Below are positions 3,651 to 61,020 of a stretch of DNA of 64,000 bases, piece by piece; within the stretch, counting starts at the first letter, position 1; each line of letters begins with the position of its first letter. Below the pieces are notes generated by a model. It did no database searches and was not told the origin of the DNA. It saw only the letters and a list, made by a program, of their open reading frames with translations. The DNA comes from Octopus vulgaris (taxonomy: Eukaryota): positions 31,682,001-31,746,000 of the forward strand of contig OX597835.1 in assembly GCA_951406725.2 (NCBI GenBank). Direction: 5' to 3'. The position numbers and the translations under genes are program-made.

Positions 3651-3719
3651 CACCTGAAGATTGACTGTAACCATAAATCGAATTATTATGAATTGGACAG
3701 ACATGAAACGATCGTAGTG
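3651..3719 (+). ncRNA. Type I hammerhead ribozyme (PLE pLTR-type)
   Basis: cac CTGAAGA ttgactgt...acagacat GAAA cgatcg TA gtg. Stem I cac/gtg, stem II tg-ctgt/acag-ca, palindromic stem III ACGATCGT. Confidence 0.8.
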
Positions 3720-4104
3720 TTTTAATCATTATCTTTTATTAATCTTTTAATACTTTTGATATATATTTAAAATAATATAAATTAATTAATTTTATGTATT
3801 GCCTTAAGTTTTTCATTGTTTGATTTGCCTAATAGTGGTTTTATCTCTAATTTAATATAATATAATATTTTACTATAAAATTGGATTCAATCCTAACTCT
3901 GATTTTTCCCTGTAAGTTTGGATTTATTCCCTAATATTTTATTATATATATATATATATGTATGTATTTGTGTATATATGTGTGTGTATTTATTGATGCA
4001 TATGTTTATATAAATATACTTATTTATGAATATATATGTTTATATATGTATATATATATATATAAACATATATATATATTTATGTATGTTTGTATGTGTA
4101 TACA

Positions 4105-4280
4105 TATATAGCCACTACACACTTTTTTTCTCTCCTTGTTTTCTGTGTCCCTTTCTGTAGAGGAGCGTAGGCTCGAAACGTAAAAGACTTTTTCTATTCC
4201 TGAGCGTTATACTAATACATCTGTTTGTTTTGTACACCACCTGTCTTCGTCTTTTGTTTTTTCGTAAACTCTCCTATATA
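4105..4280 (+). mobile_element. ~180-bp interspersed element with minimal hammerhead-like motif (4151-4186), subfamily H1
   Basis: cttt CTGTAGA g gagc gtag gctc GAAA cg TA aaag. Homologous to 22381-22560 and 38375-38560; ends in (TA)n. Confidence 0.7.
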
Positions 4281-7200
4281 TATTCTAGCTGAATAGTCCG
4301 TCATTGCCGGTCAATTTTTACAATAGAATGTCATACATAAATTTTTGTATCTATTCCATATCACACCATGCCTTTCCCCAACAGACAGGCCTCTTGATCA
4401 GGCCAGATTTGTGCAATTATTCGCGAAACAACTTCATTGAGGACTTTTTTTCCCATTTCAATTATTTACAAGTCTGTTCGGCCGATTCACATGACTTCAT
4501 TTAATAAAACTTATTAAAACTTCATTTAAAGTGGATTTCCGAGACAATCTCTCAGGATCAGACGCCAACTAAACCTGTAAGTATACATATAAATAGATTG
4601 TCAGATAGTGAGATAGATAAATAGATAGATAGATAGATATATATATAGATAGATAGATAGATAGATAGATAGATAGATAGATAGATAGATAGATAGATAG
4701 ATAGATAAAAAGAGAGATATTTAGCTAGATAAAAAAGATAGTTAGATAGAAAGACTGACAGTCAGACAGACAGATAGATAGATTGATTGATAGATAGTTA
4801 GATAGACAGACATACAGACTGACAGACAGAGTTTTCTAAGAGCGTATGTACATGTACACGCACGCACACACACACACAACCACACAGCAAATTTTTTATC
4901 AATACCACGCGTATGTTAATATTCATCTCATTGCGAGCATATCTACTTGAAAGTGTGTGTGTGTGCGTGCGTGTGTGTGTGTTTGTGTGTGTGTGTGTGC
5001 ATGCCTGTGCGTGTCTACATGTGTGTAAGGACATATATATGTTCATATATATATATAGAGAGAGAGAGAGAGACAGACAGACAGACAGAGAGGGAGAGAG
5101 AGGGTAGGAGAGGAAGAGAGGGAGGGAGGGAAGGAGGGCGGGAAAAAGGTAGGTAGTAAAGTACATGGATACTTAGATATACATAGAATTATACATATAT
5201 GTATGCATGTAAGCGTCTATTCAAATATATATATGTATACGCCTATACATATACATGCATATACATCTATGTGTGCATGAATGTGTATACATGTACATAT
5301 ATTTCTATGCTCGTGTATGGGTTTGCATATTCATGTGTTTGAAACAATAGCACAGGTTAAAATCGTAATGGTTTTGATGTTAGGTCAACGTGCTCATGTA
5401 GCTAATCAATAAGTATCGATTAGGCAATTATATGATTACTAAGAGTTAATTGATAAAATAATCGAAACGATCAAGGGAAAACACCCGAAGGTACCGTTGA
5501 GGCATGACCACGTTTCAATCTCAGAAACTGGCAATATAGCTTAGATATGAAATGTTGTGTGAGGATGTGTAATATAAGAGAAAGGAATAGCAAAATTTAT
5601 TTGTAGAACAATCTGAAAAATGTAATTGGATGAAAGATTTATCAATATATACGTTGAATTTTTATACAGTAAAATTTTATCAGTATATATATTCAGTAAA
5701 TATTATATTGTAATATATAAGAAGATACTATACAAGCGCACATACACGTAGAAGCGTGTAGACACGGGCACACCTCAGTGCATCAAGGAATATATGCTCC
5801 CAAGCGTGCAGGTCGAAATAAATATAAAAGCATTTTCGTGCGGGCACAAGATAAATGTGTGTGTATGTAAGTTGTTTTGTAGTAAACATATAACTGTATA
5901 CACTCATCTATTTTCTACTTTTCAAACAAATATAATTTTGCTACCTTGTTTGTTACTCATTTCTGAGTCAGTATGGAAGCACACACACACACACACACAT
6001 ACACACACAGAGACACACACACACACAAACAAATAGACATACATATATATGTTTACTTATATGTATATATATGCATCTACATATTCCTATGTATATCCAT
6101 GTGTGTACATATATGTGCATATATATATGTATATACACACGCGCACATACACATACAGACAAACAGACATACACATATGAGTTTACTTGTATATATGTAT
6201 ATAAATATATATATACATGTGTATCTACATATTTCTATGTATGTCTATGTGTGTACATACACATACATACATTCATACACACACATACACACATATATAT
6301 ATGTATGTGTGTATACATACACACACACATACACACACATATATATATATATGTGTGTGTGTGTGTGTGTATATGCACACACACACACACACGCACATAT
6401 ATAATACTTAAAGAGAGACAGATACATGTATAAATATATATATATATAAATGTTTATGATATATGTTTATGTGTATATATGCTTAAATATATCTAGGTTT
6501 ATATATATATATATATATATATATATATATATATATACATGAGTGTCTGAGTGTGTGTGTATGTGTGTGTGCAATGTGATACAGATTGCTTTAAAATAAT
6601 ATATGAATTATTTAACGCGGAACTGAAAAATAATCCTGAATAAACGCATACAAATACACTAACATGCACACACATTGTAATATATAAGCACAAGTAAGCA
6701 TACATACGTACATACATACATACATACATACATATATATATATATATATATATATATATATATATATACATATATATATATATGCATATATATATATGTA
6801 TATATATGTATGAGTGTATATGTCAATCTATGTCTACCTGTATATAGCACCCTCTCCAATTCCCTCTCTTTTTCTCCCTCCTCTCTCTCCCTCCTCTGTC
6901 CTTCTCTCTCTCTTTCTTTCTTTCTTTCTCTCTCTCTCACTCTCTTTATATATATATATATATATATATATGTGTGTGTGTGTGTGTGTGTGTGTGTGTG
7001 TGTGTCTGATATGTGTGTGTATGTAAATATGGTGCCATACGAATAAGCATATATGTACATGTGTGCTAGTCCGTGCTTGTTTGTGAGTTTGTGTGTATGT
7101 GTGTGTGTATCTCTGTGTTTATGTGTATGCATCTGTGTGTGTGTGTGTATATGTGTGTGCATATATTTCAATAATCAGAGCTTTTTACTTACTTCAGCGT

Positions 7201-8818
7201 GAGCTTATATAACCGACATCGCTCACATCATTTACGAATACATTACAGTAAAAGCCTTTTTGCCTGGCAGCCATTTATTGATTAACGGACTTGTCAGGCA
7301 TTCATATGTAAATTTACTTTGCCCTTCTCTTGGTTCGCCGGATTTCACCTTTAGATATAGTATTGATATATGTAGACTTAGATTTCGTTAGGTTAGATCC
7401 CTGATTAAGAACAAACACTTCCACATCCACATATGGATATATTTGTAAACAGATATAATCTTCCGTCTGTATGTATATACTTTGCGCGTGTATACATACA
7501 CACACTCATACATACATATATACATACATATATATATTTATATATGTATATATTTATATATATATATATATATATATATATATATATATATATATATATA
7601 CATATATATATATATATATATATATCATATATATATATATATAATTTGTGATACGTATACACATATGTAAGTATGTGTGTATGCATGTATATATACATTC
7701 ATACGTACATACATGGATATATATATGTATGTGTGTGTGTGTATATATATATGTATGTCTGTCTGTTTGTATGTATGCATGTATACATACACATTCGTAT
7801 CCATACTGATGCGCACACATGTATATATATATATATATATATAGAGAGAGAGAGAGAGAAAGAGAGAGAGAGATAAATAGATAGATAGATAGATAAATTG
7901 ACAGACACACAGACAGATAGATAGATAGATAAATAGATAGATAGATAGATAGATAGATAGATAGATAGATAGATAGATAGATAGACAAACAGACAGATAG
8001 ATAAATATATATATACATACAGATAATTCATACATACATATTTATGCATGCGTAAAAGCACAAATGCACACACACACACACATATATATATACTCATACA
8101 TATTCACAAATATAGATGCATACACTTAAATCTATATGTGTGCAACGGTGTGCATACCCACCTATGAATAAATTATATATATATATATGGTGAGAGAATA
8201 CACTTTTAGTTGTGAACCTTTTGTTCTGGTTGTGTTTTTGAATTGCATGTTTACTGACATACAACTGACACATCATGTCATTTCTGAAAATACGTGTTTC
8301 TATTTATTTTCTAACATTAATATTTAACCTAAAAGGTTATTCTTTAGGAATATATTTCTCATTTGCTCTATGGTGTATTCCATAATCATACGCCTTTTCA
8401 GTATTGTTTCTCCCCGACATTTTTCTGTTTATCATTTTTTTTTTCTTTTAATTATGAGTTTAAAAGCCGGATGTGTCTGGGATGCTGCCGAAAACATGTA
8501 TGTGTGATTGTGGGCCTGTGTGAACGAATCTAAGCTCTTTATATTAAGAATATTCTTATGTATATCGCTTTCAAATTTTGGCATAAGGTCGGCAATATCA
8601 GGGTGAAGGGTAACTGATAGCGACCCTGAAAGATCGAAAGACAAAGTCGACCACTGCGGTATTCGAACGCAGAACAGACAGTCAAAAGAAATATCTCTTA
8701 GCAATTTTCCCGGTGCGGTAACTATTCTCATTTATATGTTCTTATTTATATAGGCTTCAAATTTTGACCCACTGCGAACAATTTCGAGGATGGGGATTAC
8801 GTGCTCAAATAGTACTTA

Positions 8819-60428: not shown

Positions 60429-60466
60429 CTGTCTGATGAACGGCAACGAGAAAATCAGAGTAACAG
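60429..60466 (+). ncRNA. Minimal type I hammerhead (right arm; stem III mismatch)
   Basis: ctgt CTGATGA acggcaacga GAAA atcagag TA acag. Confidence 0.62.
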
Positions 60467-60607
60467 ATTTTTAAAATTTTCTGCTGCTTTAAATAAAGCA
60501 TATTACTCTACCACTGGTATTTGAGTACTCTTTTTTTCCACCTTGTTTCACATTTATGTGTTTACTCCGGTATATATATATATATATATATATATATATA
60601 TCGTGTG

Positions 60608-60788
60608 TGTATTTCGTCTGTCGTTACGTTCTGAGTTCAAATTCCGCCGAGGTTGACTTTGCCTTTCATCCTTTCGGGGTCGATAAATAAAGTACGTTTC
60701 GCACTGGGGTCGATGTAATCGACTTAATCCCTTGTCTGTCCTTGTTTGTCCCCTCTGTGTTTAGCCCTTGTGGGTAATAAAGAAAACA
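60608..60788 (+). mobile_element. SINE family B (5' truncated)
   Basis: GTATTTCGTCTG..GCCTTTCATCCTTTCGGGGTCGATAAA..TTAGCCCTTGTGGGTAATAAAGAAAACA. Confidence 0.85.
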
Positions 60789-60842
60789 TATATATATATA
60801 TATATATATATATATATATAGTGTGTGTGTATATATATATAT

Positions 60843-61020
60843 AGTGAATCTAAACAAAAACAAACAAGAAGAAACAATAACGCGAGCACGAGGTACAAGT
60901 ACTGTATTATCAGACGCTCAGTGAAGGAAGGAAAAGGATTTAACGTTTCGAGCTTTGCTCGTCTTCAGAAATAGAGGAAAGTCCAAAGGAACTGAAGACG
61001 GAGGAAGAAAATTTGCGATG
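60843..61020 (-). mobile_element. HHR element, H2-related, with canonical core (motif 60938-60972)
   Basis: Minus strand: attt CTGAAGA c gagc aaa gctc GAAA cg TT aaat; 3' end in (TA)n. Confidence 0.75.

Follow-up and report, generated by a model that had tools for sequence, protein, structure and literature searches.

Metazoan Penelope-like elements (PLEs) carry minimal type I hammerhead ribozymes that have been described for many variable, mostly solitary families per genome, with a short helix I and a loop-less or palindromic helix III (PMC4209133). Tandem PLE transcripts unite two such hammerheads and their cleavage processes the intermediate (PMC4209133, PMC6765202), although in vitro single motifs were inactive and dimers weak (PMC4209133). 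Among PLEs, those of the Hydra clade bear a type I motif in their 3' end, sense to an open reading frame (ORF) that joins a reverse transcriptase (RT) to a GIY-YIG endonuclease at its C terminus and shows RW and DKT motifs but no CCHH; Craig et al. 2021 list an octopus Hydra element with a hammerhead (PMC8557442). Metazoan non-LTR (long terminal repeat) retrozymes, which are non-coding, high-copy type I units in PLE-bearing genomes, number more than 6,000 motifs, belonging to 16 families, in Acropora; mussel has about 5,000 of them and axolotl as many as 120,000 (PMC7229834). For Octopus vulgaris, a repeat annotation of 2026 describes a PLE expansion, and the words ribozyme, hammerhead and Hydra do not occur in its available text (PMC13282606); no octopus hammerhead census was found in the literature searched, which does not prove its absence from print. 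Here, we analysed a window of 64,000 nt of the 2.80-Gb O. vulgaris genome (G000:C22:31682001-31746000), an AT-rich stretch of which 23% is masked as tandem repeat and at least 33% is interspersed repeat, and in which a sequence-only reading had listed 18 hammerheads. Our analyses suggest, with a probability of about 85%, that these motifs are type I hammerheads in the 3' pseudo-LTRs of PLEs, at least partly of the Hydra clade, truncated, often inverted and lying beside (TA)n tracts, whose RNA would likely cleave itself as dimers.

A type I hammerhead-like motif is present within a few bases of each of the 18 listed coordinates (six on the minus strand), but only nine are intact (3654, 11309, 24538, 29414 minus, 29992, 44889, 50523, 60245 minus and 60968 minus). 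The claimed density of one per 3-4 kb thus stands only with damaged copies counted, whereas intact motifs occur once per 7 kb. Three further motifs differ only or mainly by a family-wide core change (4155 and 38494 minus, A6U; 51528, U4C with a helix II lesion), two combine a variant core with a broken palindrome (22431, 46151), and four show point lesions (30333, G12 lost; 44746 minus, palindrome broken; 45175 minus, G12A; 60433, C15.2A). Measured against the core C3-U4-G5-A6-N7-G8-A9, G12-A13-A14, A15.1-U16.1 and H17, 11 of the 18 agree throughout, namely the nine intact ones and two with a broken stem III, while seven deviate (A6U in three, U4C in two, G12 lost in two). Eleven motifs have a perfect, loop-less palindromic stem III and one a G-U palindrome; two form a 9-nt stem closed by a 1-nt loop, and in four the stem is broken, in keeping with the earlier statement that stem III is mostly a loop-less palindrome (12 of 18, one with G-U). 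The intact motifs have a stem I of 3-6 bp and a helix II, which is weak at 3654 and 24538. Because three inverted pairs (29.4/30.0, 44.7/44.9 and 60.2/60.4 kb) are included, the 18 motifs correspond to 15 insertions of about 10 families. Masked BLAST, used for the window repeats because microsatellites had swamped a plain repeat search, revealed no tandem hammerhead arrays in the window. Decayed or half motifs were found at all four of the partial sites proposed earlier (near 26225, 28955, 49792 and 58311). The motifs, together with the paired or single 3' ends that carry them, are given below, where F2 and F3 denote the two most abundant families.

3654..3716, plus strand: intact type I motif with a 44-nt helix II region and stem III ACGATCGT (scan and grading)
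4155..4182, plus strand: minimal hammerhead of F2, A6U core, stem III ACGT (grading)
10992..11634, plus strand: pseudo-LTR of a very young PLE family, copies 98-100% identical
11309..11412, plus strand: intact motif with an 85-nt hairpin helix II (z -6.4) and stem III ACAGCTGT
22431..22458, plus strand: F2 copy, A6U core, broken palindrome
24538..24605, plus strand: intact core, stem III ACTGATCAGT, weak helix II
26225..26258, minus strand: decayed motif, core intact, stem III broken
28955..28998, minus strand: 3' half-motif (GAAACAGCTGTA), 5' core missing
29315..30091, unstranded: two 5'-truncated Hydra PLE 3' ends in inverted arrangement, 97% complementary between the arms
29341..29414, minus strand: intact motif, 55-nt helix II, stem III ACATATGT
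29625..29799, unstranded: C-terminal fragments of a Hydra-type GIY-YIG endonuclease in both arms (E 5e-10 and 2e-8)
29992..30065, plus strand: intact motif, 55-nt helix II, stem III ACATGTGT (G-U)
30333..30398, plus strand: damaged motif lacking G12 and some of helix II, stem III ACACGTGT
38467..38494, minus strand: F2 copy, intact apart from its A6U core, stem III ACGT
44616..45019, unstranded: two Hydra PLE 3' ends as an inverted pair, of a family whose copies are 96-98% identical genome-wide
44674..44746, minus strand: hammerhead with intact core and broken palindrome (ACATATAT)
44889..44961, plus strand: intact motif, 54-nt helix II, stem III ACATATGT
45149..45175, minus strand: F3 copy with a G12A lesion
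46151..46177, plus strand: F3 copy, U4C core, broken palindrome
49796..49873, minus strand: intact core and ACGATCGT, stem I lost
50523..50567, plus strand: intact motif, 9-nt stem III ACTATTAGT, within a 75% self-inverted stretch (50341-50604)
51528..51554, plus strand: F3 copy with a U4C core and a lesion in helix II, stem III ACGT
58315..58402, plus strand: decayed motif with long helix II (CCGATGA, ACGGCTGT)
60179..60498, unstranded: inverted pair of short PLE-type 3' ends
60216..60245, minus strand: intact motif, 9-nt stem III ACTCAGAGT
60433..60462, plus strand: partner copy of the 60245 motif, C15.2A lesion
60942..60968, minus strand: intact minimal hammerhead, stem III ACGT, distant relative of F3

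That these are chance matches in AT-rich repetitive DNA was weighed against 60 block-wise dinucleotide shuffles of the window. The combination of a perfect CTGANGA, GAAA, a loop-less palindrome of at least 8 nt and H was observed 7 times versus 0.15 in the shuffles, and a perfect core with a palindrome of at least 4 nt and a stem I of at least 3 bp 8 times versus 0.10, the strict tiers together spanning 6-8 observed versus 0-0.15. In the whole genome, the perfect core with an AC-NNNN-GT stem III matched 40,872 times when the spacer was 40-70 nt and 18,110 times when it was 9-39 nt, compared with 1,643 and 1,523 for reversed-pattern controls, and helix II shows compensatory changes. On the other hand, the loosest tier, which allows one core mismatch, barely exceeds chance (57 versus a shuffled mean of 35.4 and maximum of 52). 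One of the eight strict matches (13914-13992, minus strand) lies within the coding frame of an ORF of a long interspersed nuclear element (LINE); it recurs at genome locus L086 (L numbers denote genome loci) and is probably a chance match. Rfam, moreover, reports nothing: no hammerhead match in the window reaches gathering score, and the best 150 of the 477 E-value matches include none. Those listed were mostly microRNA models on microsatellites or inverted repeats, and the top false microRNA matches arise from the hairpin formed by the 51.5 kb F3 copy with an inverted, internally deleted partner at 51558-51801 across a (TA)n tract. The Rfam miss is consistent with the long helix II and loop-less helix III, and a match to an Rfam model does not define catalysis. 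A strict scan demanding an unbroken helix II was rejected: of the 18 listed sites it recovered only 5, and in relaxed form it came near chance. For the strict tiers, the shuffles and the reversed-pattern controls rule out a chance origin, and the motifs are real type I hammerhead sequences; chance as the general account of the motifs has virtually no probability left.

The assignment to Hydra-clade PLEs is best documented for the 44.8 kb family, for which a first look at the genome gave 1,814 candidates, the best being 96-98% identical and often arranged in inverted pairs, an arrangement also common among the best matches of the 11.3 kb family. A GIY-YIG endonuclease was detected in 3 of 9 other loci of the 44.8 kb family, and a Hydra endonuclease lies 574-615 nt upstream of the motif on the same strand in L002, L006, L020, L097 and L098. 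In L097, where the element is broken but nearly complete, the hammerhead lies 608 nt downstream of the ORF and has the same orientation; the proteins of this element, including the RT protein P0003, show RW and DKT motifs, CxxC and CxH but no CCHH, and resemble Hydra-1_Obim of Octopus bimaculoides when judged by eye against the available part of the Craig 2021 supplement. Both endonuclease proteins, P0001 and P0002 (the latter of the 44.8 kb family), are GIY-YIG types without CCHH, with CxxC and CxH around a conserved E and N, and P0001 also has a CxCX5C linker. Within the window itself, Hydra endonuclease fragments lie about 200 nt upstream of each of the 29.4 and 30.0 kb motifs in the same sense, and in L174 a Hydra-type RT is found about 600 nt downstream of a motif of the 11.3 kb family. 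The pseudo-LTR position, sense to the ORF, was thus found for three families (44.8 kb, 29.4/30.0 kb and 11.3 kb), and membership of the Hydra clade, shown for these, probably extends to the others. A (TA)5 tract occurs within 350 nt downstream of 16 of the 18 motifs, compared with 39% of random positions. All this parallels Hydra-1_Obim and its relatives, which have in common the type I motif of the 3' end, oriented as the ORF, the RT and C-terminal GIY-YIG with RW and DKT and no CCHH, the (TA)n targets, the inverted truncated copies and the 4-bp AC..GT stem III. The 9-nt stem III at 50523 and 60245 is likewise that of Penelope-1_HM and Hydra-2_aMil, with the 60245 motif close to Hydra-2_aMil (PMC8557442). 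The window also contains two larger Hydra-type protein remnants.

961..1668, plus strand: C-terminal remnant of a Hydra-clade PLE, CxCX5C linker and GIY-YIG without CCHH, its link to the 3654 motif being conjectural
10460..10866, minus strand: broken N-terminal fragment of a Hydra-type RT, of a different family from the adjacent pseudo-LTR

A weak, decayed Hydra linker and GIY-YIG remnant is also seen at 55426-55602 (minus strand, E 4e-4), and at L101:364-2205, in the 5' flank of the window, hits to RT, thumb and endonuclease mark a nearly complete Hydra-type element.

The anatomy of the motifs and their cofolding agree with the earlier view that these are PLE-type hammerheads whose palindromic helix III is suited to dimers (PMC4209133). 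It is predicted that a loop-less palindrome cannot close helix III within one copy, and that the palindromes of two copies on a tandem transcript would pair, both being cut after H17; judging from the literature, such dimer cleavage may trim or circularise the transposition intermediate, and 5' truncation with inversion would then leave hammerhead-bearing 3' ends in the genome. Of the 21 core-bearing sites in an unbiased sample, 17 had self-complementary central 4 nt in stem III (11 of them perfect, 6 with G-U), and on cofolding nearly all palindrome bases pair between copies in 7 of the 9 intact window motifs. Predicted self-duplexes of the 8-10 nt palindromes reach -6 to -14 kcal/mol, compared with -5 kcal/mol or weaker across families, a specificity that need not reflect selection. 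Between A9 and G12 the sequence folds into a prolonged helix II; the mean z is -2.6, and of 59 sequences that are distinct although related, 42 score below -1.5. Compensatory change is seen at 6 of 11 consensus pairs among 15 related copies. The window shares with the described metazoan PLE hammerheads the loop-less or palindromic helix III and short helix I, the many variable and mostly solitary families, the unpaired base after A9 in short families and the opposite-strand pairs, which there lie 100-700 bp apart; cleavage as dimers has been proposed for those hammerheads too (PMC4209133). The differences concern helix II, which has 7-8 bp in metazoan PLE hammerheads (PMC4209133) and a loop 2 of 3-10 nt in the listed Hydra hammerheads (PMC8557442), whereas most intact motifs here have a folded helix II region of 40-97 nt. 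They also have an even, loop-less palindrome of 8-10 nt, unlike those listed for Hydra elements, and copy numbers in the tens of thousands, again unlike the listed elements (PMC8557442). Precedents for a long helix II are a 35-nt loop in a spike-moss element and the half-cores of Naiad, 35-50 nt apart.

The two most abundant families show variant cores. In F2, position 6 is U in all 14 copies sampled, N7 takes any of the four letters, and the F2 pattern has at least 15,730 exact A6U matches genome-wide versus at most 504 canonical ones; in F3, 14 sampled copies divide evenly between U4 and C4 (7 each), and the exact pattern occurs 11,312 times. A6U and U4C are features of master elements and not decay of copies. 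Within these families the core decays like its surroundings, with core mismatches at 7/140 versus 110/1774 background positions in F2 and 6/126 versus 102/2052 in F3 if the U4C column of the subfamily is left out (14 copies each). A low core mismatch in the 44.8 kb group (1/181) was discarded, since most of its loci had been chosen by core pattern. The U4C of F3 is identical to a natural viroid variant of lower activity in vitro that is nevertheless sufficient in vivo, and the A6U of F2 affects the same position as the A6C of phage Bcep176, though with a different base; A6C strongly reduces cleavage in magnesium (PMC3088659, PMC7151607). The core variant described for metazoan PLE hammerheads, on the other hand, is U3-A8 (PMC4209133). 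A narrow literature search found no report of A6U, and the supplements of PMC4209133 may hold A6U or long-helix-II cases.

F2, F3 and other families without an ORF may be non-autonomous units, either retrozyme-like or short derivatives of PLEs, that PLE enzymes mobilise in trans; ribozymes with their A6U or U4C cores would then be slow or inactive without hindering spread. This proposal, which is compatible with an origin from Hydra-clade PLEs, falls only slightly short of even odds. Consistent with it, F2 and F3 form 250-350 bp units between (TA)n, with about 14 copies per 800 kb each, A6U is uniform in the sampled F2 copies and vastly outnumbers the canonical form, and non-coding units of this kind have been reported in coral, mussel and axolotl (PMC7229834). 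Elsewhere in the genome, tandem retrozyme-like hammerhead units occur at L110:2306-3442 (minus strand, 534 nt, three units) and L107:3330-3900 (plus strand, 483 nt, two units, 12-nt stem III). Against it, retrozymes are tandem repeats expressed as circles (PMC7229834), whereas the window copies are solitary or inverted and three of the families come from coding elements; the tandem non-coding units of 150-450 bp that define retrozymes are not found in the window, those elsewhere measuring 483-534 nt; expression as circular RNA is conjectural here; and extreme 5' truncation of autonomous elements would yield equally short pieces.

Several observations weigh against assigning the whole set to Hydra-clade PLEs that cleave as dimers. 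About 7 of the 10 window families could be tied to no ORF, and the loci of F2 and F3 themselves gave no hit to Hydra proteins, a further 19 F2 loci having been compared at the DNA level only. They also show no consistent link to 29 loci with a Neptune-type endonuclease. The L097 family lacks the Hydra CxCX5C linker, which is missing from P0002. Pfam returned for the Hydra-type proteins only a sub-threshold GIY-YIG match (E 5.6e-4) and no RT hit, the Hydra RT going unrecognised by both Pfam and NCBIfam. In 2 of the 9 intact motifs (24538 and 29414) the best dimer fold skips the full palindrome, and the neutrality test covers two families of 14 copies each. The Neptune-type loci came from a Pfam GIY-YIG search for F2 and F3 partners, in which 29 of 30 loci were of this type and one resembled a host nuclease exon; a strict motif lay downstream in 2 of the 30, and most Neptune-type loci had no canonical hammerhead within 1 kb downstream. 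These elements (L197-L226; CxxC linker, CCHH) include many identical-scoring copies in open frames of 781 amino acids and, by their sequence, were probably active recently. In four loci of one of their families (L202, L206, L215, L221), CTGTTGA...GAAAC strings are possibly a second, degenerate A6U hammerhead, and positions 1-840 of the window (minus strand) resemble the 3' untranslated region of that family by eye and by a short BLAST hit.

The expectation of a very large genomic complement was borne out, whereas the window is not typical of the genome. In 80 evenly spaced 10 kb stretches (800 kb), the same scanner, which passes over odd-length stem III and variant cores, found 25 motifs versus 1.3 in shuffles, or about 30 per Mb and roughly 80,000 intact motifs genome-wide, although at least 2 of the 25 look like chance; the tier with an 8-nt palindrome extrapolates to about 55,000. 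The window, with 125 intact motifs per Mb, is about 4 times denser than this sample and than its own 100 kb flanks, which hold 3 motifs (Poisson p 0.001, an overstatement given that the copies of a pair are not independent). Among intact forms, the class with a long, covarying helix II is the commonest in the genome, and the diversity of hammerheads would reflect many separate family expansions. Published counts are about 2,000 + 1,300 for Schistosoma mansoni, 4,000 for coelacanth and 9,000 for Xenopus tropicalis, obtained with descriptors that differ from those behind our 55,000-80,000 (PMC4209133); with that proviso, the number in this genome is high.

From the same abundance, it had been proposed that intronic sense copies cut host pre-mRNAs in cis or pair in trans, to the use or detriment of the host. 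The roughly 80,000 intact motifs, the young families of near-identical copies and the stability of the palindrome self-duplexes would favour such activity, and L097 sequence is present in contigs of four runs guessed to be RNA, contigs that show neither ends nor strand nor level. Host pre-mRNA cutting is nevertheless unsupported, because half of the 18 motifs are damaged or variant, cores decay neutrally in F2 and F3, and inverted pairs would fold double-stranded. Each such pair places one sense copy on either strand, and its read-through is predicted to fold at -110 to -581 kcal/mol, so that the motif would be buried in double strand. Palindrome duplexes across families are weak, single minimal PLE hammerheads proved inactive and dimers weak in vitro (PMC4209133), and Pfam recognised no family, hence no host exon, in 76 ORFs of at least 55 amino acids from non-repeat window DNA, a search that short exons would escape. 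An effect on host RNA is accordingly very improbable. If the motifs derive from Hydra-clade PLEs, the inserted copies would be mostly solitary, decaying neutrally and rarely acting on host RNA.

The window also holds other repeats. A broken LINE at 12061-17429 (minus strand) comprises a zinc-knuckle ORF1, APE endonuclease, RT and zf-RVT, and a second LINE 3' fragment lies at 18933-19763 (minus strand, 75% identity). One abundant short interspersed family without hammerheads occupies 20066-20467, 32321-32735, 34973-35376 and 58941-59326, and another abundant hammerhead-free family 24971-25162, 40271-40839, 42801-43035, 56487-56684 and 60609-60785. A hammerhead-free inverted pair of 170 bp (94%, about 1 kb apart; 20489-20656/21591-21761) may represent DNA transposon ends, and fold-back stretches without hammerheads are found at 21533-21592, 22670-22782 and 57280-57383.

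Already known are the mass occurrence and family diversity of such motifs, their palindromic helix III, their opposite-strand pairs, their cleavage as dimers and the kind of element itself, so that the main value of this work lies in a census and a correction. Modestly new are the long covarying helix II in most intact motifs and an A6U family of at least 15,730 copies. A bolder combination appears unlikely as a whole, namely that this is among the densest animal hammerhead complements and dominated by an overlooked long-arm class, in which helix II is a selected module activating the dimer, its 40-100 nt hairpin serving as a docking site for a protein or the RT or as a tertiary stabiliser, while palindromes prevent cross-pairing, A6U is a working variant and intronic cleavage marks host gene orientation. 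Because the commonest intact form here has a long helix II and Rfam scored none of these motifs, cephalopod counts from standard models, such as the 235 hammerhead-1 matches of the giant squid (PMC6962438), may be far too low. From an evolutionary point of view, the young, near-identical families together with the large A6U and U4C families provide constructs with which to ask whether the PLE hammerhead is needed for transposition or rides along.

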